Counted from the first letter of the stretch, positions 280 through 44,659 are shown. The stretch is 44,839 nt of DNA from Reclinomonas americana ATCC 50394 (GCA_048213135.1 PS015257.1:71835-116673); one strand, 5' to 3'. The notes: generated from the letters alone by a model not told the origin. Made by a program: numbers and translations.

Positions 280-2708
280 CTGAATGTCGGCATTGTGATC
301 AAACACCACGTTGTTCTTCACCAGCTTGAGGACCTTGCGTCCCTCCGTGTCCAAATACAGCTTCGTGTGCTCCATGCTGTGCGAATCGACGCCATAGGCA
401 TACTTGAAGTCCACGTCACTGCGACGAGTGACACGCGTCAGTGGCGGTGACAAGTAATCAAGCTCTCATCCCAGCACTGCGCAACTCGGCACCCTCCGGC
501 AGAATCACACGCAAAACGTACTTACGCGCGGCGACCTTGGCCAGCGCCGAGGAGAACGGGTAACGCAGCACCATCTTGCCGTCGTCGGGACGCTGGAACA
601 GCACATCGTCAATCAGAGTGTTGTGGCCAAACATAATGTGCGTTTTCCAGCCGCCAAAGAGCGGATAGCGGGGGTACATGTTCAGCTGCCGCCAGGAAAA
701 CACAGCCGGTCAGACTGGCAAAAAAACAAGAGGATTCGTTTCGTGGTGACGCAACAATGGCTCCCTTGTCGTCAAAAGCAACGGCCGAGGACGACACGTT
801 GCCGATCTCGTCGCGGAAGTACAACCCGTAGGTGTTGAGCGGCATGAATGCCACTGTGCTGCGCATGGCGTTGGCGCTCCACGTTTCCGGGTTACGAGTG
901 TACTCCAGGCGAGAGAACGGCTGCTTCAGCCTGCACGCACCAAGAGAGTCAGCGTCGTGCACTGCGGTGACGATAGTGGCGCGAGGCCGACGCAACTTGG
1001 CGCCGACGTGCTTGATGGTGGCACTCTCCTCCACACGAATGTTGCCCCAGTGCGAGATCTCGATTTCGCGCTCGATCAGCGGCGCGACCAGCAGCGGCTC
1101 GTTGTTTTCAGTCTGAATGGCCAGCTCGGACTCGGAGAACGGGGCGACGCCTGCGGAGCGAGGGAGTGAGAGGAGGCGATGACAGAGGAAGAGAGACTTT
1201 TCTCCTGTGTAGACGCAACTGTCGTACGGTCCAAATGTCAGCTTCTTGCCGTCGCGCTTGCTCGGCTCCTTGGCCGTGAAATGCTCGACGCGAGTGGTCG
1301 CCAGGGTGACCTCGGTCTCCTGGCGCACAGTGCGGTACGGCGAGAAGAAGTAGTGGTTGCCGAGGAAGAGCACCGTCTGACGCTCGTTCTGCTCCATCTC
1401 CGACGGGTACGCATCAAAGCCCTCAATCAGCACAATCGTCACGCCAATGGCGGAGCGCTCGCCCGGGCCCACTGGCTCCTTCAGCAGCACGTCGTAGAAC
1501 TTGCCACTGTGTTGGGTTCGTGGTGAGGGAAGGAGAGGGATAGAGGGAGAAGGGAGGGAGAGAGAGGTGCGCAACTCCTTGACGACTTCCAACTCGGGCT
1601 CCGTCTCGGATTCCACGTGGAGGAAGGCCAGGCGTGAGAGCTCCAGGTCGTCGAATGCCAGCTGAGGGGGGAGGGGGAAAGAGTGAGGGAACGGAGGGGC
1701 AAGGGGAAAAGGGAGAGGGTGGAGCATATCAACAAGAGAATGGAACGAAGCGAGGTGAACGAGAGAAAGACGCGGAAGACTATAGGAGGAAACAGAGAAC
1801 GACGTGAACGAAATGCGAGCACAGCGAGCGAGTGCTGTGAGAAGGAAGACGCAGCGCGACAATGCAGCATTGCAACAGCATGCGCGATAGAGAAGGTGGA
1901 GCGAAACGAGAACACAGCGAGAGAGAAGAGACGAGTGCGGAGAGGAGGAAGACACCGTGTGTGAAAATGCGGCACTGAAAGAGAGCAGAAGGCAGAGCAA
2001 CAGTGGAAGATGAAACGAAATGAGAGCACAGCGAGAGAGAAGAGACGAGTGCTGAGAGGAGAAAGACACAGCGCGACAATGCAGCATTGCAACAGCATGC
2101 GCGATAGACAAGGTGGAGCAAAATGAGAGCACAGCGAGAGAGAAGAGGCGCACATGGAAAAGAGGAAGACGCAGTGCGGCAATGCAGCGTTGCAAATATG
2201 GCAGAGGATGAACACGAGCAACGATCGACGTATGACGAGCGATCATCACGAGGAGGAAGAGCGCATGAAGTGCAGGAAAGCCACGGAACAAAGAGAGAAA
2301 GAGAGAGAGAGAGAGAGAGCGAGAGAGCACGATGCCACCTGTCACGAAAACCTGCAATTCCTCCGCCACTCATGACACACACTCGGAATCGCCCCACTCA
2401 CACAGCACAAGCACAGACACACAAACACACTCAACTCGATACTTGGCCACCGACTCCTTTGCATCCTTGCTGTTGCGGAACCGAATCGAAATCTGGTACC
2501 CTATACACACACACACACACAAACACACACTCAGCACACACACACTCTCTCCCTCTCTCACACACAGACACACATACACGCAACGAGCGAGATTCCTGCT
2601 CAGATCCAACTTGCGTTCCACACGCTCATTCACAATCGCACTCTCCGCCACACACGCACACACAACAACAAGCAACACACAAACAACAAACACGCCACGT
2701 GTCATCAT
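280..2708 (-). CDS. RPN1: Oligosaccharyltransferase subunit ribophorin I (3' partial, runs off the window)
   Basis: Signal peptide MMTRGVFVVCVLLVVVCAC, then ribophorin I motifs (ENNEPLL..IEREIEISHWGNIRVEE, FSRLEY, YFRDEIGNVSSS, PRYPLFGGWKT, LPEGA, YLDTEGRKV). Frame-restoring GT-AG introns: 2501-2584, 1662-2435, 1507-1575, 1151-1219, 931-996, 686-755, 419-485; the next intron starts at 279. Confidence 0.95.
1815..2200. repeat. Imperfect intronic tandem repeat in RPN1 intron 2
   Basis: CAGCGCGACAATGCAGCATTGCAACAGCATGCGCGATAGA at ~1852 and ~2068, with a degenerate third copy at ~2170; interleaved GAGCACAGCGAGAGAGAAGAG copies. Confidence 0.8.
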
Positions 2709-2794
2709 CTCGTCACCACCTGCAAAACACAAAGAGAGAGAGAAGAGAGAGTGAGAGAGAGAGCGCAATGTCGACACAAACACACACAGGAAGA

Positions 2795-3412: not shown

Positions 3413-3414
<2 letters not shown>

Positions 3415-3510: not shown

Positions 3511-3769
3511 ATGGCAAGTGCGTCTTCTGAGCGCTCATTAGTGCCTGTGGAGGTTGAGTATTGCCCGAGTTGCGTTGCTTTGCGTTGCTTGCATATAAAG
3601 GAGAGTGTGTGTGTGACATGTTTGTTTGTTTGTGTTTGTTTTTTAGATTGTGGAGTGCCGCCCGAGTATTGCGAGTTTATGCCGACGTTTAACAAGTGTA
3701 AGCCGTGGTTGCGTGAGCATCATCCGGAGTTGTATCCGCAGTTGTTGGCTGGTGAGTGTGTGAATGTGA

Positions 3770-3801
<32 letters not shown>

Positions 3802-3813
3802 TTGAGAGGGGGA

Positions 3814-5391: not shown

Positions 5392-7129
5392 TCAGCCGTG
5401 CCCGACAGTCACTGCCACAACTCCATCAGTCAACAGCTGCAGCAGCAGCAGCACGACACGTACGTCAATGCCCACCTTGCAGCAGCAGGCATGCCATGTC
5501 GCATGCCGTCTGCAACACAGCGTTCTTGACTGCCAACTCATCCCACACCACACACGTCGTCGGGAGTCCGCTCTCCCGCAACTGGCGCTGACGGCGGTCG
5601 ACTGTTTGTCAAGTCAGCAGCCTGCTTGCAGGCAGTCTCACTCACGACCGCAGACGCAACGCATGCCCGCCAGGTCCGACGTTCCACCGTCCAGCGAATT
5701 GATCATTAGCGTGCGTGGAATCGCCAGCAGGGCGCGAGCCAGCGCCTCGCCACCACACTGTGACACCACTGTCGGTTATCGAACATCGACCACGTCCAGT
5801 CGCTGTGTTTGCACCGTACCTCGTCTTCACCATCCCACTCTGCGATCTGCCGTCGCAACTGATCTGCCAACAGGAGCTCCGTGTCACCGTTGCCGGGCAC
5901 AACCTGCCGTTCATCGTCAATTGAGTAGCAACAACACGGAAACACATTCACACACATACCTCGGGCGTCAACATTCGTCTCCTTACGGCATCCAGAGCGC
6001 GTTCGGCACTGCGGGTGTGGTCGCCACACACCTCCACTGTGCTACCCCGCACCACCACCGAGCAGTGCGGCTGTGGCGTCCCCTCAAACACGACTATTCC
6101 CTCCTGCTCGCCAAGTCGAATGGTGCGCACACGCCCGACCGTCATCACCATGGCAGGCAGCGCGTCACCATCGAGTCGCACCTGCAGAGCGTGCGCTAGC
6201 CGTCGCATGTCGACAGTGCTCACGTGTGTGAGTACTACCAGGCCGGCGGCAGAGAGGTATTGCAGAATGGCGTCATGAACGCGTCCGCCGACAACCACCT
6301 GCGATCGCCACACAGCGTGTCATCATCGCTGCGCTTCATATACTCAGCTGTGTGTGTCTGTCACGCAAAGAACAAACCACGTTGGCACCGGTGTCAATCA
6401 CGGCCTGAGCCTGCGCCGCGTACACGCGATCTTCATCGCTCGCCCATGTCTGCAGGTGCTCCGGTGTGTCGAGGGAGGCCACCAGCGACGCCTGTGCAAG
6501 GAAGTGAGAATCGCGCATGTTTTTTGTCTCTCTCGTGGACTGCATGCACGCAGAGACCATGGTGCGATCCCGCTCCAACGCATCAGCTTGCAGCAACACA
6601 CGTGAGTCTCTCAACGAAGATTTCAGAGTCTGTTGTCGACAAGAGAGTGAGACCACAACAAGTGCGGAAGAAAGCAGTCGCAGCGCCAGACCCCGGATGC
6701 CAGTCGTCCCGATTGGACGAGCACACCACTGAACAACTCCGAGGCCTCCACGGTGCGACCCGACACGCCCACCACCTGCACACGTGCTCTCCACTGCTTA
6801 TCCCAGCCACCATCGACGCTCCTGACCTGCTCCACTGCTCGCACAAGCAGCGGTACGAGCTCCGCCGACGCTTCCTTGAGCGTGTACGCCAGCACACGCT
6901 CCACCAGAGTCTTCCAACCCATTGCATCAGCGCGGGAGACCACGGGAGCAACACAAGCGCGAGAGCAGTACCTCCTCACGCGATTCCACGCGCGACAAGG
7001 ACGGCAGCAACTCCTCGCAAAGCACATGACGGGCACGACGAAGACCGCAGACGAGCTTGTGTCGGGCGACGCCTCGACGACGCATCACCTCGGCGCTCTC
7101 TTGCCTACGGACGAGGGGGGGAGGAGATG

Positions 7130-7160
<31 letters not shown>

Positions 7161-7256
7161 AGGAGAAGGAGGGGAGGAAGGGAAGGAGGAGAAGGAGGAG
7201 GAGGAGGAGGAGGAGGAGGAGGAGGAGGAGGAGGAGGAGGAGGAGGAAGAAGAAGA

Positions 7257-7349
<93 letters not shown>

Positions 7350-7404
7350 NNNNNNNNNNNNNNNNNNNNGAGAGTAGTAGAGTAGAGAGAGACGAGAGAG
7401 AGAG

Positions 7405-7475
<71 letters not shown>

Positions 7476-8020
7476 AGAAGAAGAAGAAGAAGAAGAAGAA
7501 GAAGAAGAAGAAGAAGAAGAAGAAGAAGAAGAGGAAGAGGGGGAAGAATGGGAAGAGCAAGAAGGAGAATAAGGAGGAAGAAGAAGTAGGAAGAGAAGGA
7601 GAACGCAGTGAGAGACCGACTGGAAACGCAGAGGGAAGGGGAATGAGACAACTCAGTCTGCGCAACATAATGGCCTGTGTCAAGAGCACCACAGACGCGA
7701 CTCCATCACCACATTCACGATCGAGGGCTGAGCATGCACGGATAATCATGCGTGCCACTGGTCGCTGTTCCATGGCCGCGTATACTTGTCGCAAGAGATG
7801 CATGGTGGAGGCATGTGCAATGAGCGATCTGTGTGAGTGAGCGAGAGAGGAAGAAGAAGGAGAAGGAGGAGAAGACATAACAAGAAGAAGATGAAGATGA
7901 AGAAGACGAAGAAGAAGAGTTGCATTCTCACTTTCCATCCGGCTGAATGACGAGTTTGCCAAGCGCATTGGGACCTAAGCAAGTGGCCACCAAGTCGGCG
8001 AGAAGCTGCACGTCTTCCAT
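5392..8020 (-). CDS. Divergent group II chaperonin-like protein, BBS10/MKKS/BBS12 type (BBS10 most likely)
   Basis: Spliced N-terminus MEDVQLLADLVATCLGPNALGKLVIQPDGK..RPVARMIIRACSALDRECGDGVASVVLL; apical SVVVRGST; VVPGNGDTE; ALARALLAIPRTL; VVWDELAVKNAVLQTACDMACLLL. About 10 introns; the last exon and stop are uncertain. Confidence 0.7.
7130..7530. repeat. Compound (GGA)n/(GA)n/(GAA)n microsatellite inside chaperonin intron 7105-7666
   Basis: Direct reading; contains a 20-N gap. Confidence 0.95.
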
Positions 8021-8110
8021 GTGTCGGATTTGTGAAACACGACACGTCCTGTGAAGCTCCCTCCACTCCCTTCCTCGGAAAAAAACCTATCTCACTGCGT
8101 GTATTAATTA

Positions 8111-10715: not shown

Positions 10716-12903
10716 TGTGGAGGAGGCGATTGCTCGTGCGTTGTGCTCCCTTGCTGCCTCTCTCCTTCTCTCTCTCTCTTACTTGCGATGTGTGTTCTGT
10801 GCAGGCTTGCAGAGTCTCGTGCCGATGAGTGAGGCCAGAGCAGTTCCCGGAGGTGTGCACTCTCAATCTCCCTCTCCCTCTCCCTCTCCCTCTCACTCGC
10901 ATATCACCAGTGGCCTCCAGTGTGCCTCTGTCGAATCGTTTCAATGCAGCCTCGTTGCGAGCTCAGCAGTCACAGCGATCGATAACAACAACAACAACAA
11001 GTGGCGTGCGACCGGCTGTTGTCGCGCCTTCTGTGGTGAGCACCCTGCGATGGGGTCAGTACGCGGCCAGCACCAACCTCGCCCTGTGTCTCCTCGACGA
11101 GACACTGATCACACTGGTCACTCATGGAGCCTCGGCGTTGCTTGCACAGTGCGTGTTCGCGTGCATAGACTAGGCGAAGGAGTGTGTGCGACTGAGCAGT
11201 GCTGCAGTGTTGTGTCGCGACAGCGGCATGAGTGGAGCGAGCGGTGGCGTGAGCTGTGCGACTCGGTGTTGTTTGATCAGGAGGCGCGTGGTTGTTTGCG
11301 AAAAGGGTGGCTCGTGTTGCGTGCTGAATGCGGTGCGTTGCAGGGTGACTTGTTGACGGTGCGCGATGTGCGGCGGAAGCGGCAGCAGCTGACGGAGATG
11401 ATGCAGTTGTCGTCGATTGTGTCGCTGTCGTCGCGTGGCCGCAGTCTCTTTCAGGCCACTGGGTTCATTGTCTCCATTCTGTATTATGTGGGCTCGGGTT
11501 CCCTCGGTTGCGTCGACGCCCGCAACATCAGTCTGGTTTTTGGGCGGTTTCTCACCCCGCAGCCGCACAGGTTATCGGTCGGCACTTGGTGGTTTGTTGG
11601 GACTGCTGAAGCGCAAGCGCATGCCGGTGAGTCGAAAATCTCCTGCACGACGTGCTGGTGTGCCCCTCACTGCTCTTGCGCAGAATCGTCTCGTGCACTG
11701 GGAGTTTGTGGGCCGCTGCTTCGTGTATGCCGTCAGTCGATGGAGTATTGCGGTGGGTGTGCAGTGGCTGGTTTCGTGGCTGTGGAACATGGTGGAGGAG
11801 GACGTGGTGAAGCGACCGACGAACGACGAGGTGCCTACCGATCACTTTGAGGAACGCAGTTGCGTGCCGTGTGCGCTCCTTGCGTGTGCACAAGGAGCTC
11901 AACGCCGTGGGTCGGGCAGCTCCGCCGGAGAGCCAAACCGGCGACTGCGTGACCAGTGTGGCCACGACGCGTGGTCATTTGACCAACATTGAGGATTTGG
12001 CGCGTCTCATTCTGCGTGACATGACCACTGTGCTGCAGAGATTACAGGTGCGCATCCTTCCACGATGTCTCCCTGCGTTCCTTACACTGACGTCTGCGTG
12101 TTTGTGATCGCAGAACTCGGTAAGCGGTGAAGACCGCGAAGCGATAGAGCAGCTACATGGCGACATGGACAAACTGCGGACAACATTGATGCTGGTGCAT
12201 CGGGGAGTGCTGGCGGAGGTGCGCTCCTCTCTCTCCCCCTCTAGCACACACAAATCTGTCTGTGTCTGTGTTCACACGTCGCCCGTACAGATGGAAGGAG
12301 AATCCGGCCGACTCATCCCAAGCGACGAGCTCGACAAGTACGTGACGGCGTGTGTGCGCGCCAGTCGCCAGAGTGTGGAGTGCATGCAACTGACACTCCG
12401 CGAGGGTACGCACGTCTTTTATTCTCCTCCTCATGCACTCTCCCATTTCCGATACGCACAGTCACGGAGCGCATGAGTTCCTCGTCGTCGCACGCGGCAC
12501 GCAGTGTGTCGTGGCAGGTTTTGTGCGAGCGCTGCTTGAAGATGGTGGCGCACCACGAACGAGAACTCGGTGCTCTGGGACTGCGATTGAGCGACCGCGC
12601 ACGCCAGCCGCCATCAAACGTGGTGACCAATTTGCTCAGCACACTCGGCGAGAGGCACGTGAAGCGCGCCCTTTCTCCGTCTCACACACTCTCTTACTCA
12701 TCGTGACGTCGCAGGCTGCCGGATCCGCTGGCCAATCATCCCAATCCAATTCTCCGCAAAGCCAGTCTGCACGTTCTCTCGCCTCTGCGACCGCTGGGCG
12801 GCGCGCTACAGTGGGCTTGTCAGGTGGTCTCCAGCTTCGCCACCTCCGCCATTCTCTCCATGGCCGATCTGTGAAACATTTTGTCTCTACCTCCGCCAAC
12901 TAA
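10716..12903 (+). CDS. Multi-exon hypothetical protein (5' partial)
   Basis: Chain of short open segments joined by ~60-nt GT-AG introns (e.g. RKRMP|NRLVHWEF, LQRLQ|NSVSGED, GVLAE|MEGESG). Stop is at 12874 or 12903 depending on the last donor; no recognisable domain. Confidence 0.55.
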
Positions 12904-13108: not shown

Positions 13109-14982
13109 TCAACGCTGCACCTTCTTCAGGGAGATGCCAAACGCAGTCGCCGGCGACAGCGACGGGTCCTCCACAGGCTTCTGCGCTGCTTGCACTGGCG
13201 CGGGCGCCGGTGCCTTGGGGGCGGGGGCTGCGGGAGCAGGGGCTGTTGAGGCGGGGGAGGGATGAGTCGCATGTGGAAAGAGACAGAGAGTGAGCACGGG
13301 TACAAACCTCGGGCAACAGGGGCCGGGAGCGAAGGCGCTGCCGATTTGGCGGGTGACGATTGGCGGACGGGGGCCACGACCGGCACTGGAGCCGGCATGC
13401 GCGAGGCCGGTGCGGAATACGACGACGACGATGATGATGAGGACGACGAGGAGGAGGCAGCCGCAGCACGAAGGGACTGGCGCTGTGCCTCGAGGCTGGA
13501 GAGGGGAGGGATGAGGGGAGTGCGGGGGAAGAGCAAAGGGGGGAAAGTAAGAGGGGGTAGGGAAGAGGGGGAAGTGAACGGAAAAGGGAAGGCGAAGGGG
13601 GAGGAGCATGGGGGGAGGAGCAAAGGGGGAAGANNNNNNNNNNNNNNNNNNNNNNNNNNNNNNNNNNNNNNNNNNNNNNNNNNNNNNNNNNNNNNNNNNN
13701 NNNNNNNNNNNNNNNNNNNNNNNNNNNNNNNNNNNNNNNNNNNNNNNNNNNNNNNNNNNNNNNNNNNNNNNNNNNNNNNNNNNNNNNNNNNNNNNNNNNN
13801 NNNNNNNNNNNNNNNNNNNNNNNNNNNNNNNNNNNNNNNNNNNNNNNNNNNNNNNNNNNNNNNNNNNNNNNNNNNNNNNNNNNNNNNNNNNNNNNNNNNN
13901 NNNNNNNNNNNNNNNNNNNNNGAAAGGGGAAGAGCAAAGGGGGAAGAGCAAAGGGGGAAGAGCAAAGGGGGAGGAGCAAAGGGGGAGGAGCAAAGGGGGA
14001 AGAGCAAGGGGGGAAGAGCAAGGGGGAAGAGCATGGGGGAAGAGCAAGGGGGGAAGAGCAAGGGGGGAAGAGCAAGGGGGAAGAGAAAGGAGGAAGGGAA
14101 AGAGGAAGGGGAGGGTAACGGAAATGAAACAGGCAGAGAAGACAAAAGAAATGGTTTTATGAGTGACGCAAACAGACAAAGAGAATAGAAGCTTGAGGAG
14201 ACGAAGAGCGCAGGGATGTGATAACACAGTCCAGAATGGCAGAGAGAGAATAAGGAAAGTCGACGAAGAGTGAGATGACTTGGGAGAAGGAGACACTGAA
14301 CTGAATCTAACACTACGGTTCATAGTAAACGCAACATCGAATTCAGCTCGCGGCTGAGAATGGCGAACGACGAATCAATGGCGCTCACATCGGCACCACC
14401 AGCTGCACCACCGCTGCCGCCACTGCTTCCAGACGATGCTGTGAACAGCACGCGGTCAACGGTTAGCCGCACAGAAGGATACATCCCATGTTATCACTGC
14501 GTCCGCACCTTGCGCCAACTGGCTGCGCAGCTGTGACACCTCGTCTTCCAGCGAGCGAACGCGATTGCGGAGGTCGGAGGCCTGCGCGTCGCAGAACAGA
14601 GATGGCGTGAATGACGGCAAGAGAATTGAGAGTATGGAAGCCCAACGAGTATCGAGGTGAACGAGAGGGCACATGGAGAAAATAAGCAAAGAGATTCGAA
14701 GAGGACACCATTTACAACAAGCAAAACGGGCTCTCCAATCTCGCACAAGCTCACAAACACACCTCCGATTTTGCGCGCTCAAGATCGCTGCGCAGCTGAC
14801 TGGCCGTGCTGTCGTTCGACTTGCGCATGCGCTCCGCTTCAGCGTTCATGTCTGGACACGAGTGAATGAGTCACTGCGATGCAGTCGACGAAAGAATGGA
14901 TACATGACTGACCGCGCTCGCGATCGTTCAGCCGCTTCTCGCGCTGCTCGAGCTCCTTTCGTCGCTCCTCCAGTTCCTTGGA
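13109..14982 (-). CDS. Coiled-coil plus Pro/Ala/Ser-rich protein ending AFGISLKKVQR (5' partial)
   Basis: Six exons splice in frame: SKELEERRKELEQREKRLNDRER / DMNAEAERMRK.. / ASDLRNRVRSLEDEV.. / ..SRELNS|ILEAQRQSL.. / APAPAAPAPK..FGISLKKVQR*. Confidence 0.7.
13520..14085. repeat. ~14-bp GGGGGAAGAGCAAA minisatellite in intron 13496-14335, spanning a gap
   Basis: Direct reading on both sides of the N run. Confidence 0.85.
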
Positions 14983-25898: not shown

Positions 25899-27818
25899 NN
25901 NNNNNNNNNNNNNNNNNNNNNNNNNNNNNNNNNNNNNNNNNNNNNNNNNNNNNNNNNNNNNNNNNNNNNNNNNNNNNNNNNNNNNNNNNNNNNNNNNNNN
26001 NNNNNNNNNNNNNNNNNNNNNNNNNNNNNNNNNNNNNNNNNNNNNNNAGAGAGAGAGTAAGAAGGCACGTGCGCCTTAAGATCAGAGAGACCAGAGACAA
26101 GGAGGTCATAAGGCAAGAAGGAAGAGAGGGCGAGAAGGGAACTGATGCAAGCAGACGAGCGAGAGTTGTGATCGGAAGAGAGAATAGTCAAGGCTGAAGG
26201 CTGGAAGGAAAGCACGTGCGACAAGACGACGAAAGACTTGCACTGGTGCAAGCCGATTAGACTGAAGACTGAGGGACCAGAGACGAGGTACAGAAAGCAG
26301 ATGCGAGTTGAGTTCGAGAGGAGACGAGACAAGAAGCAACTTGCACTGGTGCAAGCAGAATGATGAAGGCGAGGGATCGGAGTCAAGGCTGGGATCAATG
26401 CAGTAAGGTCGGCGAGAAGAGAGTGTGAAGGAAGGATGCTAGTTGAGAGCAAGGCAAGCAGGAGAATGAAGCGATGGGGAAGTGTAATCGGAGAGAGAAG
26501 ACAAATACAGGCAGTCGTTTCCTGTCTCTCTTACTGTTCCCCTGTTGACGATTCTCTTTTCTTGCTTCACAGCCCGGCGATCTACAGCGCAACGCCGACC
26601 TGGGACGACTATGTAGCTCGTGCACGCACGCAGGCGCCGTCGTTTGAGGACGTGGGAGTGGCGATTGTGTCGCATCGGTTTCAGGATACGGTGCGAGTGG
26701 CATGCCAGCAGCGCACGTTTCTGCGCGCGTTTCCGCACCACGTGGTGCTGTCGGATCGTGATGTGCCGGAGCGCGCGATTCAAAAGATCTCCGGGTGTCC
26801 GTTCCGCGCCAACAAGAGCTCGGGGCAGCGCAAGATGGAGTTTGCGCCGGTGGATTTGTGGCGGGCGTTCCCCGACAAGCGCTTCTACTTGATCTTGGAC
26901 GACGATGTGGTGCTGCAGCCAAAGGGCTTGCTACAGCTGTTGTGGGAGACCGAGAAGGCCATGATTGATGGTGAGGGAATTGAGGGAACGGGGGAAGAGG
27001 AAGAGAAGGGACTGAGACACTAGAGGTGAAGAGAAAAGAGTGGCAGAGGTCTGTCTGTGCAGTGACACATGGCCAGCGAGTGACTCAGTGCTCTCACTCT
27101 CTCCCTTCGCTCTTTCCCCTTTCGCTTCCCCCAATCCCCCAGTTCCCGTTGCTTCACCTCTTGCTTCCGTCTGTGCTTCTCCTTTCCCGCAGTTTCTCCG
27201 TGCTCTCCTCCTTCTCATTTCCGCCTTCTCTCCTCCGTCTCGCTCGTCCCCTTCCCCTTCCCTGCCCCCCTTCCCCTCTCCCCCTTCCCCCTCTCCCCCC
27301 CTCACCCCCTTCCCCTTCCGTCATCGCAGTCGGCACCGACGTCTGGCTCTCGGGCGAACTATGGGGCGTCGTCTACGGCGGCACCTACATGTTCTCCGGC
27401 ACCGCCATGCGCGAGCTGGTGCGCCACGGCACCATTCTCTCGTGCAACTTTGACCTGGAGGACCGGCGGCGGCGTCACATTGAGTTTTATCCGGGAGTGG
27501 AGCCGCATGCGCCGTACAATGTTGCGTTTCTTTCGTGTCCCACCCTTTATGTGAGACCCTGACGATCACGTGCAGGGCGATCACATCCTGTCGTACTGCG
27601 TCGAGTCACGTCTCGGCGGCTACCTCTTCGACAACAAGGAGAGGGTGATTTACGATTTGCCGGCCACCGGCTTTGACATTTACGGTGGCGATCGGCTGCC
27701 GCGCAACGTGGTCGCCGTGCACCACATCAAGGACCTCGCCGCCATGGAGATACTGTGGAGTCAGTTCTCCGGCGAGTCTGTCTCCTGCACCGATGAGGTG
27801 ATGAAGCCGAAGAGATGA
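25421..27818 (+). CDS. Type II membrane glycosyltransferase, GT31/Fringe-like
   Basis: N-terminal TM (ALYILILIAASLLVSAAII), FPDKRFYLILDDDVVL, YGGTYMFSGTAMREL, GDHILSYCV, VAVHHIK. Introns 26972-27328 and 27521-27575; the first intron contains a gap. Confidence 0.72.
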
Positions 27819-28753: not shown

Positions 28754-28756
28754 CTC

Positions 28757-29252: not shown

Positions 29253-30561
29253 ATGGCCGCCGCAGCACGTGCCAACAGTCTCCGCGTGCGCCCCGCCCCT
29301 CTCTTTGAGGAGGACGACGACTGGCCCGCGCGCAGGTCCCACCGCAGTCCCTCTCACTCCTCCTCTCGCCTCGCCGACTCGCCTGCCTCCGCCTCCTCGC
29401 CCATCATCGCCGCTGCAGCAGTGGCCGCTGTAGCACAAGAGCCAGTTGGCGCGCGAGCAGCCGCTGCTGCAGCAGAGGCGGTGGCGGACGCAGAGGAGGT
29501 GCTGCGCGAGCGGGCGAGACAGATGTGGTATTTGACCATGCAGCAGGGGAGAGCGGCGTCGATGGAGTTTCTGAGCTCGTTTTGCTGCGCGGGATTGTGT
29601 CCGGTGATCGAGGTTTGCCCTCGACGAAGAGCTTTTGGTGAATGAGGCAGAGAGATTGATCCGCTGCGTGGTGCAGACGCCGAGTGATCTGTGCTTGGTG
29701 TGCTGTCGCCTGACGTGTGTTCCGTGCTGGGTGAGTCTATAGTCGCGCGTGTCCTCTATTGACGTGTATCGATTTCGTGCTTATGCATGATGAATACAGG
29801 TGTCGTATTGTTGCGAGGCTCGGCAGTTGCGTTCAAGTCTTGTTGAGCTCGGGACTTGCCCAGTCCTCGCCGACGTGTATGCTGCAGAATCCGACAGTTT
29901 CAGAACGAGGAGCGGCGTGCGCTGGCTGTGTTGGCGCACGGTGAAGAGCTTGTCATGTTGGAGATGATGCGAGTGCATCGGGAGCGTCGTTGCGTGGCCG
30001 CCCGGTGACGCGCTTCTTCCTCCCCCTTCCCACCCACTCACTGTTGCCTGCAGAGCGACATGAGGAGGCAGTGGCACTGCGACGGGAGGTGTGTGAGCGC
30101 GATCGGCCACGGGATGTGCGGCACCCGGTTCGTCGACCACTTCCCGTCCATCGCTTGTTTGTCCGCGTTTCCCGCACCTCACACTCACTCCCCTATAGCC
30201 ACCTGTGGAGTTGCTGCGTCGCTCTCCAACCGTAATCGAGGGCGCCTCGTCGTTATTTGACGACGACGACGACGACGACGGCGGCGATAAGCGACCGGTG
30301 CTGTCGCCCGTCATGTTCTCCAGTCCAAGCTACCCGCCACCACCGGCGCTGCTCGCCGCCAGTGATCCGCACTGGGGCGACAGCTGGGTGTTGCACGCGC
30401 CGACCGATGCCGACATGCAAGTGGCGCGAGCGGCTTCCGAGAGCTTCTTTGGCAAGCAGCAGCGGTCGCCGTCGTCACGCGCAACACTATCGCCTCCGCC
30501 GATGGTGCTGTTGTCGCCCCTCCCTGGCTCTGTGATGGAGACCGACGAGGAGCCAGACTGA
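29253..30561 (+). CDS. Hypothetical protein with Cys-rich (possibly Zn-binding) centre and low-complexity ends
   Basis: Six exons splice in frame: ..FCCAGLCPVIE|TPSDLCLVCCRLTCVPCW|VSYCCEARQ|IRQFQNEERR..RVHRER|QRHEEAV..RHP|PPVELLRRSP..ETDEEPD*. Two junctions use GTTGCG donors (29826, 29989). Confidence 0.6.
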
Positions 30562-32650: not shown

Positions 32651-33545
32651 ATAATGCAAAATGGTCGACGGCAATTGACAAAAGAACGGAGATCGAACGC
32701 AAGGAAACTACTGGTGGTACCATTCTACGTCGCTGTCGCTGTTGCCCGTCGACACCAACGGTGCTTTCGTGATCATGAATTCGAAGGTCGACCTGCAAAA
32801 TCGAGGTCCAATGAAGTTCATTTGCAGGCGATCAGGCTGAGACTCATGTAGCATAAGCACATATGTATACTTGCAGCTCCTTTTTCATTCAAGCACCATG
32901 TGCATGGACACGAGACAAGATTTTTTTTTAGTGTCCCGTCAGTCGACCAGTCAGCACCGAACACTCGTCGCGCACACGGTGAGCAACAACACCCACCACT
33001 CTCACACGCCACACCACCACTCATTGCGGGTGTGTGTGTGAGAGAGAGAGAGCTTCTTTTCTGTGCCTGTCGTCACACATCGGTGAAGTGTGTGTCTCCC
33101 ACTTTTCAACTACATACCCACTTTTGTCAATCTTCGTTCTCTCTCTCCCTCCACCGCGCGCGCTCTCCTTCAAAGCACCTCACGCGCGTGCACATAAGAG
33201 AGGGCAGCGCGCGCTTGCTACTGCTGCCCACGCAAAAAGTGTGCACGTTTTTTTTATTTACACATCACCTCACGTCGCACTCACCGTGTCACTCCTTGTT
33301 GTGTGTACACGTGGTATGCGCATGCTCACTCACAAAAACGCGAGAAATGAACAGAGAGTTAGAGAGAGTGAGTTTGGTCGGGGAAATGTCCGCGCAAAAT
33401 AGTTTGTTGTTGACTCTTTTTCTTTTGCGTGTGTTGTTGTTCCTCGCGTGCGTTCTCTCCGTGACACATGCTGCACACTCACCTTTTCTTTTGTTGTTGT
33501 TTTTGTTGCTCATTGTTGTTGTTGTGTTATAGAACGGAACAAATC

Positions 33546-34267
33546 ATGTCTGAGGGAGCATCTGGATCGGCAGCAGCGCCTGCAGCGGCGTCGGCGGCGG
33601 CGGCAGCAGCGGCCTCGACTGACCCGGCCATTGCGGCCAAGGCGGCGGCCATGCACGCGCGTGTGTCATATGAGCCGATTGATCCGGCCTCGGCGCCGCG
33701 CATTACGCTCGTGTCGCTCGAGGGCGTCGAGTTTGAGGTGGCCCGTGCCATTATCTGCGGCGTCAATGGCGAAGGCCATGCGCTGCCGATTGCCTCGCAG
33801 TTCATCATCGACATGCAGGGAGTTGCGCTGCTGATGTCGCCACCACAACTCGAATCGCCGTATTGTCTGACGTTTTCATTTGTGTGTAGGCGGAGGCCGA
33901 GGGTGATGGCTCTGAGCGCGTGGAGCTCAGCCGTGTGCACACCAAGACACTAGAGGCGGTGGTCAAGTTCATCAACCACCACGCCGTGCACCCGATGGAG
34001 GAGATCAAGCGACCACTGGAGCTGCAGTACAAGGAGTCGTTCAACTTTGACGACTCCATCTCCGAGTTTGATCGCGAGTTCGTCAACGAGCCCGCCTGCA
34101 ACATGGAGCTGCTGCTGCGCCTGATTGAGGCCGCCAACTACCTGTCGATCAGCGATCTGACCTCGCTAACGCACGCCAAGATGATGTCGCTCATCAAGAA
34201 CAAGTCCAAGGAGGAGATCCAGGCCATGTTCCGCGACCTCATGCACCTGCGCGCCGCTGGCCACTAA
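33546..34267 (+). CDS. Skp1-like protein (BTB/POZ + partial dimerisation domain)
   Basis: ITLVSLEGVEFEV, VHTKTLEAVVKFINHH, ISEFDREFV, LLRLIEAANYLSISDL..MMSLIKNKSKEEIQAMF. Intron 33822-33889; probable 5'UTR intron acceptor at 33532. Confidence 0.88.
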
Positions 34268-34528: not shown

Positions 34529-35493
34529 TCACAGCTTGGCTCGCGGCTGCTGGCTGGAGCGTGCAGCAATGAACTTTTGCATGGCGGCGAACTGCTCCGG
34601 TCGCATCTTGGCATAGTACGCAAAGGCGCGCTCCTTTTCCAGGCGCCGACCCTCGGCCAGCGTCTTGGAGAAGCCCTCGTTCAGCACCGCCCGGTAGCCA
34701 CGCACCACCGGCTGATAATTCTCCGCAATCATGCGCGCCAGCTTCTGCGCCGTCGGCAACAGATCGTCGGCCGTCGCCACCACGCGGTTCAGCAGGCCCC
34801 ACGACAGCGCCTCCTCGGCCGACACTGGGCGCGCAGTCAACGAGATCTCGCGCGCCACGTTGGGGCCGACCACGCGCGCCAGCCGCTGCGAGAGGCCCCA
34901 CGACGGCATCAGGCCGAACTTGCAGTGCGTGTCCATGAACTTGGCCTCGGGGGCGCCAATGAGGAAGTCACACGCCAGTGCCAACTCGAAGCCTCCGGTG
35001 ATCGCGAATCCGTTGATGGCGCCAATGATCGGGAACGGGCACAGGTCCATCTCCACCAGTGGATCGTTCTCCACTGTGGCCGGAGCACCGTCCTTGGACT
35101 GCACGTGAATGTGTGTGAGACACATGCATGCAGGCTGCGGAGATTTCCTCCCGCCACTCAACTCCTTGGAAAACGGACTTGGCGGCGGTGAGGTCAATGC
35201 CCGAGGTGAAGGCGCGCCCGGCGCCCGTGAAGATGACCACCTTGACAGAGGCGTCGTTGCGCAGAGCGCGGAATGCCTCTGCCTGCATGTGTGGAGAGAG
35301 TGAGATACAGACTGGTTTCTCTACTCGTCACAGTGTGTGTGCTCACCAAGTCGCGCAGGAGGTCCAGGCTGAGGGCGTTGAGGGCATCGGGACGGTTCAT
35401 GGTCACCGTCCAGATGCCACTCTCGCTGCTGCCGGAGACCAGCACGAGGCCGGAGGCGCGAGTGTGGTCAATGCTCGACGAGGAGGAAGCCAT
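34529..35493 (-). CDS. Peroxisomal enoyl-CoA hydratase/isomerase (crotonase family), PTS1 -AKL
   Basis: TVTMNRPDALNALS, IFTGAGRAFTSGIDL, PIIGAINGFAITGGFELALACD, FMDTHCKFGLMPSWGLSQRL; ends PRAKL*; two introns. Confidence 0.92.
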
Positions 35494-35592: not shown

Positions 35593-37075
35593 TCATGTCC
35601 TCGCCGGTGGTGTGTAATCGGCGGCCTTTTCCAGCTTGAGCTTGGTGTACCACACGACACCGGCGGCGGCAATGATTAGGCCGGTGATACCGCGCGGGCC
35701 GAGGACAGTGCCGAAGAACACGGTGCCGATGACCAGCAGGGCCACAGTCTTGGCGTGACCAATCACTTGGTACCTGCAAGCACACGAATGAGGATCGACG
35801 AAAACTTTCATACACGAATTCGCCGTCATCGCTGCACGCAACATGAGTGCCGTCAGCTTGCCAATGACCAGCGCCGAGGTCAGGTTGACAAAGAACGCAA
35901 ACGTGCACGACAGGAAGAAGAGACCCTGTGCGCGTAGATGCGAAGAGTGAGCGCAGTCGCCCTGCAGAATCATCATCGCTCGCATGAACGAACGCACAAA
36001 CACATCCTGCGAGAGGGCGACGCCAATGAAATCGGTATTAAGCTGGCCCGACAGCAGCGTAAAGACGAGCATGATGGCGGTCTGGTAAAAGCTGAGATGC
36101 CGCAGGTAGTGGATCGAGTCCAGCTTGTACACATTCTGCGTCTGCTGCAGCTCCTGCTGACCGACCGTGGTCGACACCAGTGCCACCACGGCTCCCAACA
36201 ACCCAAGGCCCGTCACCGTAAACTCGGTGACAAAGATCAGCGCCAGTCCCACGCCGAGCAAGGCGAGCGCCACCGCTCCTTGCAGCGTCGGTCGCACATT
36301 GAGCCAGAGGAACTGCAGGAGGGCCTGAGCGGGGATGATCAGCAGCTTGGTGAACTGGTAGAACGACACGTTGGTCTTGTCCAGCGTCCAGTTCATCGAC
36401 AGCACCGACACGTCGAGCAGGAAGGCGTCGAGGGCGATCCTCCATTGCGGCACATCAATCGGTGTGTTCACGTAGAAGCCCAGTCGCTCGGCGAGAATCG
36501 CATACAGCCACGTCACCAGCAAGTGGGACAGCACGAGCACGCCGTCTGTGCATGAGTGAGTGGGATGAGTGGGATGAGGAGAAGGGGATGAGAGTGAGGC
36601 GCAACGGTAGTTCCAATCGGGCGTCATAAAGAGCAGCTTGTTGACCGACACGAGACTGATGGTGGACAGCACGTTCAGAACGGCAAACAACGCCGGGGCG
36701 TACTTGATGTATGGGCTCTCTGTGCACACGCACGCACACGTGTGAGTGATGGCGCGCAGATCCAACATGCGCGCGCGCACCGCAAAGACCAACACACGTA
36801 CCAGCCGCCGACGACGATGACGATGAGGAGTGTGAGGGCAGCAGGGAGCCGCCTGCGCCTCCACTACCACCACCACCACCACTGGAGCCCATGGGCGAGC
36901 TGCTGACAGGAGCGCCGCCTCCTGCAGTGGGAGCACTGCCAATCAGCGCGCCCATTCGTCGCAGCTCCTCGCCGCCACCATGTGCGTCCGGCACGTCGTC
37001 GTCATCGTCGCGCGAACGTGTCAGTGGTATGCGAGCCGCGGCATCGTCGCTGTTGCCTCTTCCCGGGCCACGCAT
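35593..37075 (-). CDS. SLC35/TPT-family nucleotide-sugar or sugar-phosphate transporter (SLC35E3-like)
   Basis: NVLSTISLVSVNKLLF, MNWTLDKTNVSFYQFTKLLIIP, AFFVNLTSALVIGKLTALMYQVIGHAKTV; about 10 hydrophobic segments; four introns. Confidence 0.85.
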
Positions 37076-38896: not shown

Positions 38897-41518
38897 GCTT
38901 TGACTGGTGGGGAGGGCGATGTCTCGTCGAGCTCCAGGTCGTCGTCATCGTCGTCGTCGTCTCCCTCATCTTCGTGCTCGACCCCGTCGCGGAAGGCGCG
39001 ATTGCGACGACGGATGCGGACCCAAGGTGAGGCGATCCACTCGAGCGAGGGCGCGGATTCCATGCCACCACCACCGCCGCCGCCACTCGACGACATGTGT
39101 CGCAGCAGCCACACGTCGGTGGCCGAGGTCGAGGAGGAGGAGGAGGCGAGGGCGGCGGCGGTGGAATCGTCCGAGTGCGGAAGCGTGCCGATCGTGGTTG
39201 CATGTGATGCGGCGGCGGCAGCAGCAGACGCAGTACCCGCTGTGCCGGCCGTGATGGGAATTGTGAGACTGCGACTGGCTGGCACGTGCGCCAAGGCCTC
39301 CAGCCGAAGCATGTGGATGCCGGGTTCATGCAGCGGCAGCTCCACACGCAGGCGCTTATGTTCCCCCGCACCCGGCGTGATGACGGCCTCGCTGGCCACT
39401 GTGAGCGTAGTGTGAGTACGGGAAAAGTCAAAACGAGTGTGGTGGTGGTGGTGGTGCACACACCGGAAGCCATCTTTCCGGGCGCTCGGTGCAGCACGCG
39501 CAGCTGCGTGTAGTGTTTGGGCAGACGTGCACCATCCCATTCCATGACCAAGTGGTTGAGGGAGCCACGTGACACGACGCGCGCAATGTGCAGTGCCGAT
39601 TTCTCCGTGTGCTCCGCTGCGCAAAGAAGAAGAAGAGTGTAAGTAAAGCGAAATGCCGTGTCATCGGTGGAGATTGCACGCCTACCATGCTCGGTTGCTG
39701 CTCGTGCTGCGGCCACACTTGACGCTGCACGAAGCACGTGTTAATAATACGCAAGGGGAAACAGAGCACCTTGCCAATCAACAAACCCAGGCGAATCTCG
39801 TAGACGTCGTCCGACGGCCCAAAGTCATCCTCGCCGCCGCACAGCAGGCCGCGATCGGTGCCGAGCATGACCACCTGTTCGCCGAAACGACGCGGTGCCT
39901 TTCCGCGCCGCCACGAATGCTTCACCTGCGACCACTGCATGCCGTCCACCGACAGATAATGCAGATGCTCGCTGGCCGTCATGTGCACCGTCTCGCCGCC
40001 CACCAGCAAGAAGCCACCCTCGGCGACCTTGGTGAAGGAGGCGTATGCGACGGCCGGTGGAATGCGCCCAAGGAAGTGCACGGCACGCCATCGTTTTCTG
40101 TCTGCACAGAGGCGGATGCATGTGAGAGGAAGAAGAGAGCGCGCGCGGAAGGAAAAAACCACAAACCAAAATCGTACACGTGCGCTCGCGGTGCCCACGG
40201 CCACTCCGGCTGCATGCCACCAAACACGAGCATGACGTGGGGAGAGATCATCGCAGCCGCATGGCCACAGCGAGCCATTGGCGGTGTGCCATGCGGCTCC
40301 AGCACCTCGCTTGTGCGTGCTTCTGCTCGCAACGGGTGAGGCGAGGCAGAGATGGGGCAGTGGAGAGAGAGTGACGCAACCTATATCGATAATGTACATG
40401 TCGGCCAGGAGCTGCTGACCGTCGTAGCCACCAAATATTACCAGTTTGTCATGATACCTCACGCTGAAGAAACGCAGCGAGTGAGGAATGAAGTGGCAAA
40501 GGGGAAGGATTGGAACAAGGGTGAGAAACTCACCACGAGTGACCACATCGTGGAGTTGGAACCGCGCCTTCCAATTGTATGGCCTTGCATTGCATCTCGG
40601 TGGCACTCACTGCGAAGAGCATAATTAAAACAGACGACCCAAGACGCTCTCAGTTCCCTCTTCCCCTACTCCCTTCCCTCTCTCTCCCTCCTTCTTCTCC
40701 CTTCCTCCACTACATCCCTGATAAACAGACGACCCAAGATGATCTCAGTTCCTCTTCCCTTCTCCCTCCTTCTCCCTTCTCCCCCTTCTCCTCCCTTCCC
40801 CTTTACCCCTTTACCCCTTTACCCCTTTCTCCCCCCTCTGCTCACCATCCGCAAACTGCAACCACAGCGTCTCATTGCTGAACGCCCTCGGTCCCAACTG
40901 GCCACCCCACAGCACAAATCCACTGCCGCCGCCCAACTCCAACGCCGTCAACGTGCACCGCGCTCGCGGAGCCGGTGGCGCCTCACCCGCCTCCATCTTC
41001 CACGCCACTCGCCTTCTCTCATGAAACTCCGTGTCGATCACCATCAGGTCGTTGGAGAACGTGGCCTCGGTGTGATCCACTGCACGATCATTCACATCAG
41101 AGATCCGAACACACTATCTGTCACTGTGTTGTTTTCATGAAAGACCTGCATGACTGCTGTTGTGATGATGATGATGATGATCAGTGATCTCACACTCCAC
41201 TCGTGTTGGAGGCGCTCCCGTTCCATCACTGCGCTGGTGCGCATGTCGACGATTGGAGGTCGACGAAGACTTGTGCTCCACGTGCCCGCCAAACATGAGA
41301 ACGCGATGTGCGTCAATGGCCACTGCCACGTGTCCCGACTGTTGGCACGCGGGAGTGAGAGAGTGAGCAGGAGAGAGAGCGTGTCTTTTGTTATCAGCAA
41401 CTCGGAGAGCATCTGTTGAAGAGTCGCCTGTGTCAGTGGCGCCTTCTGCGGGGACGGAGTGCAGGGCGAGACGGCGAACGGATACGCGAGGCACACTGGC
41501 GCCGCACGCGTTGCCCAT
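38897..41518 (-). CDS. Kelch-repeat beta-propeller protein with N-terminal MGNAC motif (3' partial)
   Basis: Repeats RSGHVAV..VLMFGG, PRARCTL..VLWGG, PRCGHSC..VIFGGY, ARCGHAA..LVFGG, ..LLVGG, RRFGEQV..LLCGG; about 10 in-frame introns. Confidence 0.82.
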
Positions 41519-41930
41519 GATGGCGATCGATGAAAAAGATGCGATGGATGCGATCGGACGCGACGTTTTGTCGGAGAAGATGCCTCCAGGTGGACTGTGA
41601 TTGAAAAGTGCTGCTGTGTGCGTACGATCTGGATCCGAAGCCCGTAGGCTGTTGCAAACACGCGATTCTTTGACCAACAGTTACCTCCAAGTTGTCCTGC
41701 GAAGGATCAAGAGTCATAGATGCCAGGATCGATGCACGGCCGGGTACTGAGAGATGCACAAGGGTCAAAGGAGACAAGGGAATGGTCAACGAAAGCCGGG
41801 TTACCTCTGGGCGTATGATATGGGGATTTGTGGACATTTGTCGCATTATTGGAATGTGGTGAGTGTTTCATATAGGATCAGCCTCCCCTTTCCGCTCTTG
41901 TTGATTGTTGCTATTCATTCTATGTGATCC

Positions 41931-44659
41931 TTATGCCAGTTTCCTTGCCAGTTCACGATGCCGCCGGATAGCCACTCGCTTCGCTGACAGCCAGTATCGG
42001 AACACTGATTGGTGCACATGCGCGACGGTGAGATGACACGAATACAGTCGGTGTAATGCACAGCGACGCAACAAAGCACAAGCATGTAGACGTACGAGGA
42101 GATGGCAATGGCAACTGCGGAGCACGGTCAGCAACATCAGAAAACACAAGCACGCACAGAGAGCGAGGGCACGCACTGAGTGGAAGAGTGGCCGACGAGA
42201 CGCCCAGGGTGCACTGCTGGTCGCAGTCGATGGTGCCGGTGACGCCGGGAACCTTCAGCGTCGTAGCGTCGACTTTCTTGTGCTTGCAGATGCCGGCATA
42301 CGTGCGCGTCGGACTGCTACCGTCACACTCGTACAACATCGGCACAAAGTACGCCGAAATGTAGGTGGACAGCAGGAGGAACAACATTAACGTGGCGGCA
42401 ACGGCGTGGAACAGCGCGACACCTGCATAGGCAAATAATAAATCTCCTTCTCCACAGCGATGGCCATGCCGCATGTGCCACACACTCACCGAGACGGTTC
42501 TCCACGAACGCGACAGTGTAGTTCAACACGATGCACGAGATGAACAGCAGAAGAATGCACGCCGTGCCCACCATGAAAGTGTAGGCCACGGGGAGGTTGT
42601 TGAGCGTGAACGGTCTGCAAACACTGCTCTGGATAGTGTAGCCGGCAATAACGCCCTCTGTGAGCCACGGCAATGCAGTCAGTCCACCGTCTGATGAATT
42701 ACAGGGAGCAGATGAACGTACGATAATCGAAGCAGTGGACATTCGGGCTCAGCGTGAGGAACCACATGGAGACGAGCGTGAGGCCGAGTTTGGCGAGCGA
42801 CGTAATGTCCGACATGAGACCGAAGGCGTGGCGGAGAATGCCTTGGCGGATCTCCAGCTGCTGCACGGTAATCGCCAGCAATTTGCCCTCCTGTCCATCG
42901 TCGTCTTCCTCCTCTTCCTCTTGCCGATCTCTTGCCGCCGCCGCCGCCGCTGCCGCGGTTACTGCTGCTGCAGAGGGAGTCGCCACCACCGCCACCACCG
43001 TGTTTTCACTGTCGGCGGGCTGATTGATACCCGTAACCGTGGCAGCCACCACCACGGCATTGTCACCATCCAAGAGCTGATCATGATCCTTGGCACTCTT
43101 TCGCCGCCGCCGACACGTGCAGTCGCGCCAAAAGTCGGAAAACGAGCACTCCATGTCAGGCGGTATCTTGCGCTGGTACTCGAAGCCCAGGAACGCCACA
43201 TACAAGGCTGCGCGTGCGGTGAAGGGGGACAGGAACTTGTAAGGCGACATAGGAAAAGCACGATGAGTGCAAGTGTGTGTGCATACTCACAGGAGACAAG
43301 GAATGCGACGGAAAGCAGAAACACTTCGGTCGGCACAAAGGCCTGGCAGCTGTGAACATCAGAGTAAGAGAGAATGCGTTTCTTGCTCTCTGTTCGCAGA
43401 CTGCGTTCACTCACTTGCCGCACGAATAGCTGGTCATGCAGTTGTTGGTGTACGGACATATGGGCGTCTGACTGCCGTAGTAGCCCGCACAACCAACGTC
43501 GGCATAAATCTGCGTGACATTCAACGATAATATCAAGCCGGTACAGTTGGTGCTGGTAAACTGGACACGCGAGTGAGGGGCGATGTGCAAACAAAGAGAG
43601 GAGGAATGGTAACGGCGGCGACTCACCTTGTCCACATAGCACTTGAAGCGTGCCCTCAGGAACGGCAGGTAGTACACCAGCGAGTACTGTGCCACGCCAA
43701 ACAACGCCGACAACACCGTCACCGTGTATCTGCGATGAACAGGGATCAGATATCTTCTCCTTCTTCGTCTTGTGCCAACGTGCCACACGCAGGCGCTCAC
43801 CCGATGATGGTGGCGGCGGCCGCGAATGGTCGAAACGTGCGCAACAGAATGGCCGTCAGAAAGATGAGCTGATTGGCCACGGCCAGCACCACGTATGTCT
43901 CCATGAGACCGGCTGTGTCGTACACCACGTTGCAGTACTGCCGAGGGAGGAGGAGGAAGGTCAAGAATGAGACCAGGAAGGAAGAGGCTGGCTTCACCAA
44001 AGAGAGGAGAAGAGAAGATACCCGCAGTCACACAGACCATGAAGGTGCCACACAGGCCACGAAGAGACGGGAGACAGACACTATCACAGCCGAAGGAAGG
44101 AGAAGCCAGCAATCACCTCGACGGTTACCACACAGACCACGTAGAGACGAGAGACAGACACGAAGAACAGGAGATGGGAAAGAAGATAACAGCCATACCA
44201 AGCGTCTCCTCGACAACGGCAACACTGAGCACGGAGGCAGAAGAGACAGACAAAGCAACAGCCGAAGAAAGACAGAAAGAAGAGAAAACAGCTGGAACGA
44301 AGAAGCTAGCAATCACAAAGACAATGAGAGACCACGACGAGAAAGAGAGACACGCAAGAAGAACAAGAGAAGGGAAAGAAAGTGAGAGCCACCACGAATG
44401 AGGCATACAGGCCACTGACATTCGAGAGACAGATGCAAAGAACGCCAGTGGGGAAAGGAGATAAAAGTCACAAAGAAACCTCGACAATTGCAAAGACAGG
44501 TGAGCATACAGAGAGATCCTCCCTCTGCCTCCCCGTCTCTGTCCCTTCCCTCCTCACCGACGGCGAATGCTGCAGATCAGACCCAGAAATCGTCCGCAAC
44601 ACCGGCTTCTGCTTCGTATCACAAAACCCCAACGTCATGTCGGGGCACTTTACCGCCTC
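41931..44659 (-). CDS. Orphan multi-pass membrane protein with Cys-rich loops (5' partial)
   Basis: About 10 exons splice in frame, giving several hydrophobic helices (e.g. VVLAVANQLIFLTAILL, TFMVGTACILLLFISCIVL, ALFHAVAATLMLFLLL, LIAIAISSYVYMLVLLF) and ending RELARKLA*. Confidence 0.65.

Follow-up and report, generated by a model that had tools for sequence, protein, structure and literature searches.

A frequent GTTG(C/A)G class of 5′ splice sites in a eukaryotic genomic window, possibly read in a shifted U1 register

How are introns recognised when, within the same genes, some begin with GTGCG or GTGAG and others with GTTGCG or GTTGAG? This question is raised by a stretch of eukaryotic nuclear DNA from Reclinomonas americana ATCC 50394 (GCA_048213135.1 PS015257.1:71835-116673), 44,839 bases long with about 55% G+C, which we call the window. 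Runs of N interrupt it at 12 places, and GA and GT microsatellites are frequent. An original prediction, made from the sequence, had listed 22 introns with a GTTG(C/A)G 5′ splice site (donor), and these sites, each named here by the first base of its intron, were followed up with the DNA of the window, homologous proteins, and statistics. The motif, also written GTTGMG, is present on the expected strand at all 22 coordinates, 20 times as GTTGCG and twice as GTTGAG. The whole window holds 81 copies, compared with 65.6 ± 7.8 in shuffled sequences, and 4 of 100 shuffles reach 81. Since the raw count is no higher than chance, the question becomes whether the copies sit at the ends of exons. We find that a GTTG(C/A)G class exists, that it sits at exon ends without a preference for G at −1, and that it accounts for about a quarter to a third of the predicted introns in the window.

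Junctions tested on homologous proteins

The ribophorin I gene, on the minus strand, provides most of the junctions that can be compared with homologs. A full-database HMMER search with a 95-residue exon as the query gave 378 matches at E ≤ 0.001, of which the best 150 of 378 were used, and the ribophorin I profile, a hidden Markov model (HMM), consists of 44 matches of 400–680 residues. The corresponding profile for enoyl-CoA hydratase consists of 109 homologs. In the junction test, each GT within 45 nucleotides (nt) of the donor was combined with each AG within 45 nt of the acceptor, keeping the frame open, and each spliced protein was scored on the homolog profile.

Read in one frame, ribophorin I matches its profile in blocks, and the edges of the blocks are the proposed intron positions. 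Every one of the seven ribophorin I introns resolved in the window is of the GTTG(C/A)G class. On the 44-homolog HMM, the intron at 419..485 (67 nt, donor GTTGCGC), which has a CACTGAC branch-like motif, ranks first among 8 in-frame GT-AG alternatives. The intron at 686..755 (70 nt, GTTGCGT) is the best of 3, and the HMM positions continue across this junction with no gap. The intron at 931..996 (66 nt, GTTGCGT) is in frame and stop-free; it is the best of 17 alternatives, its retention scores 13 bits lower, and, read through, it gives a 22-residue insert that is seen in none of the 44 homologs. HMM positions 194 and 195 are adjacent only when 1151..1219 (69 nt, GTTGCGT; best of 6) is removed. 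Further upstream in the gene, 1662..2435 (774 nt, GTTGAGT) is the best of 12 alternatives, and 2501..2584 (84 nt, GTTGCGT), which is rich in GT microsatellite, is the best of 33, with retention 19 bits lower. At 1507..1575 (69 nt, GTTGCGC), the listed donor gives the best spliced solution of 12; retention alone surpasses it, by a margin of 1.4 bits. The region is a variable one, and the sequence of the intron is a pyrimidine tract.

Four of these seven introns, 931–996, 1151–1219, 1507–1575, and 2501–2584, are multiples of three without stop codons, so that the stretch 612–2369 of the minus strand is one open frame, and a naive caller of open reading frames would pass straight through them. 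A likely donor of another kind, GTTTGT, is found at 270–277 (minus strand), at the last ribophorin I intron in the window. It also has T at +3. GTTTGT is the Entamoeba-type consensus, and it shows a weak enrichment at coding ends (3/29).

In the enoyl-CoA hydratase gene (minus strand), the intron at 35099..35162 (64 nt) has the donor GTTGAGT, which is used by both top-scoring solutions out of 9 alternatives on the 109-homolog HMM. The protein P0153, which is itself a read-through and is 72% identical, is alike up to the exon end at 35162 and then diverges. For comparison, the ordinary donor of the same gene at 35283..35346 (minus strand), g/GTGAGC, with the first slash marking the cut, is the best of 8 alternatives by HMM.

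Could the sites simply be misplaced, with the true cut at a nearby ordinary GT, GTTGCG being a common word, or the in-frame 'introns' being coding inserts? The four ribophorin I introns that can be read through would fit this, as would the total motif count, the placing of several listed sites by assuming the motif, and an in-frame GTGAGT that lies 15 nt downstream of the donor at 5660. However, the homolog profiles favour the GTTGMG solution at seven of the eight testable junctions, retention loses 13–22 bits at 2584, 1219, and 996, and it wins only at 1575. Furthermore, once the acceptor is given, there is no other in-frame GT at 5 of the 18 junctions examined, namely 485, 996, 1219, 33822, and 36605. 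The original prediction had itself named cleavage at the downstream GT of GCGT as an outcome that would count against it. This does not fit, because position +7 of the listed sites, a pyrimidine in all 22, is T in 16 and C in 6, and those with C have no such GT. Where the cut can be moved there, at 1214 and 991, the score falls by 19 and 11 bits, respectively. Together with the strong enrichment of the motif in gene models that know nothing of it, described below, these results make it very unlikely that many of the sites are misplaced.

Statistics, intron type, and conservation

The motif-blind gene finder was a dynamic programming procedure with codon usage as the sole score, in which any GT and any AG were allowed; it chained neighbouring genes together and misplaced many donors. 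GTTGCG was the top donor hexamer of its models. After self-training, it begins 9 of 91 introns (binomial P = 5e-7), and when the codon table was taken from recognisable exons, it begins 10 of 69 (binomial P = 3e-9), the background being 56 of the 5,370 GT sites of the window. Among introns of ≤120 nt predicted by the motif-blind model, 8 of 25 start with GTTGCG, and after donor and acceptor models had been learned from the predictions, 13 of 55 introns do so.

A transition scan was also made over 5,164 GT sites for those where the sequence looks coding over the 20 upstream codons and not downstream in the same frame, with a codon table taken from the exons of recognisable proteins. It flags 11 of 54 GTTGCG copies vs 99 of 5,164 GT sites overall (1.9%; P = 5.8e-9), and GTTGCG is the sole hexamer with P < 0.01. 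The transition scores of the 22 listed sites are higher than those of the 57 unlisted copies of the motif (Mann–Whitney P = 1.2e-4), and the unlisted copies score like other GT sites (P = 0.38). Both the homology tests and this motif-blind enrichment bear out the earlier claim that GTTG(C/A)G is a major donor class here rather than a rarity. The abundance that had been claimed thus stands, while the accompanying figure of about a quarter of the introns is probably too low here; the estimates of this analysis are 13/55 introns and 8/25 short introns.

Confident exons total 11,595 nt. They contain 3 sense and 14 antisense copies of GTTGMG, compared with a balanced 26 sense and 25 antisense copies of GTG[AC]G. 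One of the three sense copies is the donor 35842 itself. The scarcity on the sense strand could reflect avoidance of cryptic donors or codon bias, and since codon bias alone could produce the skew, we do not count it as evidence.

To judge by their sequence, the GTTG(C/A)G introns are U2-type (major) GT-AG introns. They start with GT and end with AG, and their removal restores the frame and the homology (8 junctions profile-tested). Inspection by eye, with no statistical test, found CTGAC, CTCAC, CTTAC, or CTCAT 15–30 nt before the AG in 13 of 16 short introns. U12-type introns have the 5′ end (A/G)TATCCTT and the branch sequence TCCTTAAC; neither a U12-type 5′ end nor a U12-type branch motif is present in the 22 donor contexts and the 16 short introns examined.

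The introns share a 7-base start and are uniform and short, most being 55–84 nt, as would be expected of introners, the copies of a mobile intron-generating element with a common 5′ end. An all-against-all blastn comparison of 18 introns, however, gave GT-microsatellite matches among 3 introns and nothing else. Since no sequence is shared past the first seven bases save the GT microsatellite, the introns are not copies of a mobile element. Moreover, a relative with 74% identity in the exon protein retains the orthologous donor. The introner explanation is therefore scarcely credible.

At that ribophorin I donor, the relative has the read-through S-C-V, the same residues as the window would give (A/GT TGC GT); the relative P0002 reads through the 1219 point in this way. 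A second relative (77% identical, with AT-rich flanks) has S-F-V at the orthologous donor. The window and the two relatives all fit a donor in which +1 to +3 are GTT and +6 and +7 are GT. The T at +3 is not a sequencing error, and it is not peculiar to one genome. Among the matches listed from two very large databases, the closest proteins to the tested exons are environmental fragments with 72–77% identity. The best named matches are streptophytes (Mesostigma, 59%) and Euglena (58%) for the hydratase, and Cyanophora, Chlorokybus, and Thecamonas, at about 35%, for ribophorin I. Scans of metagenome DNA with the ribophorin I exon, as a single sequence and as a 3-sequence alignment, gave no match, nor did a word-index protein search with an exon of the TPT-family transporter gene described below. 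The lineage seems to be poorly sampled.

Proposed pairing with U1

As had been proposed, the GTTG(C/A)G donor reads as the local G/GTG(A/C)G donor with the conserved G moved one place further in, and it coexists with the G/GTG(A/C)G donors inside the same genes. In RNA, GUUGCGY differs at one position from GGUGCGY, which is −1 to +6 of the ordinary site. GTTGCG(T/C), and rarely GTTGAGT, with a base before it that is not G, marks a real and frequent class of ordinary U2-type GT-AG introns. We tentatively suggest, at a little short of an even chance, that this class is read in a shifted U1 register. The U1 small nuclear RNA (snRNA) would then have one footprint on both kinds of donors. At GTTGCG donors, the first G of the intron would face C9 of U1, the usual place of the last G of the exon, and the later catalytic steps would cut at GU, one base upstream of the position marked by U1. 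The shifted register of a few human sites would thus be a routine mode here. Our statements about U1, U6, and the register are all inferred from the DNA.

The standard U1 5′ end is ACUUACCUG. Counted by hand against the U1 5′ end in PMC4856993 (Tan et al. 2016), and assuming a standard U1, GUUGCGU makes 2 Watson–Crick pairs and 1 wobble pair in the ordinary register, and 4 Watson–Crick pairs and 1 wobble pair when shifted by one base. An equal number of pairs is obtained if a standard U1 stays in the ordinary register and the U at +3 (or at +2) is bulged out, with G+1:C8 and U+2:A7 kept, an arrangement that the original prediction had also put forward. Excerpts from PMC4856993 describe single-base bulges at +2/+3 and at +3 as experimentally validated in human cells, and assign to them just 54 and 36 of 201,541 human sites. 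What distinguishes the two arrangements is the base at −1. A bulged +3 U frees C9 of U1, and the preference for G at −1 should therefore be kept. The preference is absent: the 22 listed contexts have A in 9, T in 7, C in 5, and G in 1 at −1, vs G in 8 of the 11 GTGMG donors that the learned model gives (Fisher P = 1e-4). For this reason, we favour the shifted register, and consider the bulge doubtful. Nevertheless, the −1 G argument is weak.

Several observations weigh against the shifted register or against the placing of the sites. The equal pair count of the bulge is one of them. Set against the 57 copies of the motif that were not listed, 11 of which have G at −1, the listed sites are not significantly short of G (P = 0.16), and the contrast with ordinary donors rests on 11 GTGMG donors that come from the gene models of this analysis. 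The cleavage sites are deduced from reading frame, homology, and the GT-AG rule, and the exons used to train the codon model are partly those ending at listed GTTG(C/A)G sites. Of the listed sites, 29826, 29989, 42072, 7666, and 14335 are still candidates, and 5660 is ambiguous, as homology does not discriminate between it and the in-frame GTGAGT. The original prediction had held that assuming the motif resolved the frames of orphan genes; at 29826, 29989, and 42072 this is circular, and at 5660 the motif does not resolve the frame, because GTGAGT is equally in frame there. A further point is the preference for C over A at +5. Listed donors make up 20 of 56 GTTGCG copies vs 2 of 25 GTTGAG copies (P = 0.014), and the C:A ratio is 20:2 in the GTTGMG class vs 5:6 in ordinary donors (P = 0.008). 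Since a standard U1 pairs with neither base better, this preference indicates a non-standard U1, and it hints that U1 itself may differ from the standard sequence.

Is the snRNA, then, what has changed? A co-evolved snRNA, whether one U1 whose 5′ end has changed or an additional U1 complementary to GUUGCG, would pair with these donors normally, and a G in U1 opposite the +5 C, of the kind put forward for Mastigamoeba, would account for the strong preference for C over A. Excerpts from Roy and Bowser (bioRxiv 10.1101/2022.06.08.495308) provide precedents in Entamoeba, where GUUUGU donors go with a U1 containing ACAAAC, and in Mastigamoeba, which has a U1 candidate with ACGUAC for its GUGCGC donors. 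However, the same excerpts report that Thecamonas and Mamiellales, with their GYGCGY donors, nonetheless have a standard U1. Furthermore, one altered U1 would still require two registers, because the two donor classes coexist inside single genes. We regard a co-evolved snRNA as unlikely, yet as a possibility to be taken seriously. Rfam, applied at the gathering threshold to the whole window, found no snRNA gene, and two tRNA-Asp genes were its sole matches.

Our ranking puts a shifted U1 register ahead of an altered or second U1, with the bulged register third; in this ranking the bases at −1 are observed, and the rest is by inference. A wider proposal, to which we give rather less than an even chance, is that the spliceosome of this lineage routinely uses two cleavage registers per U1 footprint. 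At least about a third of the introns would be cut one base upstream of the position marked by U1 (/GUUGCGY vs G/GUGCGY), a U1 with G opposite the conserved C would possibly help, and the arrangement would be conserved at orthologous introns in relatives.

Further sites, neighbouring genes, and known systems

The remaining listed sites vary in how well they are placed. In a DENR/SUI1-domain gene on the plus strand, the intron at 3569..3646 (78 nt, donor GTTGCGT) is in frame and stop-free, there are 3 other in-frame GTs, and a SUI1 domain lies downstream. The sole support for 3569 is its fit to the cysteine spacing that we take to be that of DENR. The gene at 5640–8090 (minus strand) is a very divergent Cpn60/TCP-1 member, with exon matches below or near the Pfam cut-off, and is partly within repeats and a run of N. 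Its ambiguous intron at 5602..5660 (59 nt, GTTGCGT) has a donor chosen by the motif-blind model and an acceptor, at 5602, placed by reading the sequence, which holds a GCTGAC branch motif. The candidate donor GTTGCGC at 7661..7666 (minus strand) stands where the Cpn60_TCP1 match ends, at profile position 73; the following exon is lost among repeats and the run of N, and the acceptor was not located. Another likely GTTTGT donor, with T at +3, is found at 6372–6377 (minus strand) in this gene. In an orphan gene for which no homolog was found, the candidate donor GTTGCGT at 14330..14335 (minus strand) shows a strong coding-to-noncoding transition in the first codon model (up 8.1, down −17.7).

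On the plus strand, the motif-blind model predicts introns at 23411..23472 (62 nt, GTTGCGC, with a GCTGAC branch-like motif), 23840..23911 (72 nt, GTTGCGT), 27521..27575 (55 nt, GTTGCGT, with a CCTGAC branch-like motif), and, in a Skp1-like gene, 33822..33889 (68 nt, GTTGCGC). On the minus strand, it predicts 36546..36605 (60 nt, GTTGCGC) in a gene for a TPT-family transporter. The intron at 35774..35842 (minus strand, 69 nt, GTTGCGT) of the TPT-family gene is found by the learned donor model only, and its sole in-frame alternative is an intron of 42 nt. The learned model is also the only one to give the intron at 40102..40380 (minus strand, 279 nt, GTTGCGT) in a Kelch-repeat gene and the candidate donor GTTGCGT at 42067..42072 (minus strand). 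The former is the sole listed site with G at −1, and the Kelch motif matches of its upstream exon extend as far as the donor; the latter requires a 42-nt exon and a 993-nt intron. For the TPT-family, chaperonin-like, and Kelch genes, the per-exon Pfam coordinates come from weak matches and do not fix the junctions.

Two candidate introns in orphan genes lie close together on the plus strand. That at 29826..29887 (62 nt, GTTGCGT) has the GT...CTGCAG shape only. That at 29989..30053 (65 nt, GTTGCGT) is plausible, with a pyrimidine tract, CTCAC, and CTGCAG, and it joins two open frames rich in E and R. No coding signal was found upstream of 29826 or of 42072, both of which had been placed by assuming the motif.

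Beyond the listed 22, the learned model gives a candidate intron at 11859..11919 (plus strand, 61 nt, GTTGCGT) that passes the transition filter. The gene models also contain a candidate donor of the GTTG(C/A)G class at 25765 (plus strand), which would require an 808-nt intron across a run of N, and a candidate GTTGAG donor at 13113 (minus strand), which has the strongest coding drop among the unlisted copies.

Other genes were noted in the window. A PARG gene with helical and macro domains, at 31095–32805 (plus strand), has the ordinary donors g/GTGCGA and g/GTGACC. The region 15700–21200 (minus strand) is a very large gene or gene array, in which repeated Asp-box/BNR-like units (YTS.DSG.TW) alternate with cysteine-rich EGF-like units; near-identical tandem copies are about 1.2 kb apart, with runs of N between them. 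The tRNA-Asp(GTC) genes at 27942–28014 and 28682–28754 (plus strand) have equal scores and a 567-base run of N between them, and may be a true pair or an assembly duplication.

What would a routine one-base offset mean? Work on the exact choice of the cut site after U1 leaves, and on the limits of U1 slip, has relied mostly on rare human sites and engineered minigenes. A donor that is routinely offset by one base would, if true, provide hundreds or thousands of natural test cases beside an ordinary class in the same genes, and a direct way to ask about the co-evolution of snRNAs and donors. A register described for a handful of human sites would then be a major way of defining splice sites, and one that is stable in evolution. 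In this organism and its relatives, a large part of the gene set would be mis-annotated by gene finders whose training was on ordinary donors. Among the titles and abstracts listed, a literature search found no description of GTTGCG or GUUGCG as a donor consensus, although a genome paper showing this donor logo may exist.

Shifted-register 5′ splice sites of human genes were reportedly described by Roca and Krainer in 2009. The human shifted or bulged sites resemble those of the window in that they start with GU, have the conserved G one place further in, and pair better with U1 in a non-standard register. The human sequence is GUUAAGU, whereas the local one is GUUGCG. The human sites are also rare, whereas GTTGCG is the commonest donor hexamer of the window: according to excerpts from PMC4856993 (Tan et al. 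2016), the validated non-standard U1 registers make up 1.5% of 201,541 human donors in total.

Donors particular to a lineage are the other parallel. In the excerpts from Roy and Bowser (bioRxiv 10.1101/2022.06.08.495308), Entamoeba has a lineage-specific donor with U at +3 (GUUUGU) and Mastigamoeba one with C at +4 (GUGCGC), and the idea for both is that the snRNA and the donor change together. The Mamiellales GYGCGY donors and the Thecamonas donors with C at +4 have the same shape as the ordinary G/GTGCG(T/A/C) of the window, and no GTTGCG class is described for either in these excerpts. Unlike Mamiellales and Thecamonas, the window has long introns and microsatellites, and it has no close protein relatives among them. 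Two donor classes one base apart at comparable frequency are likewise not described for human, Entamoeba, Mastigamoeba, Thecamonas, or Mamiellales in the excerpted sources. A single atypical donor for nearly all introns, of the Entamoeba type, is not what the window contains, since GTG(A/C)G and other donors coexist there with GTTGCG. Entamoeba, as described in those excerpts, has one near-universal atypical donor and few introns, whereas the window has two donor classes one base apart in intron-rich genes.

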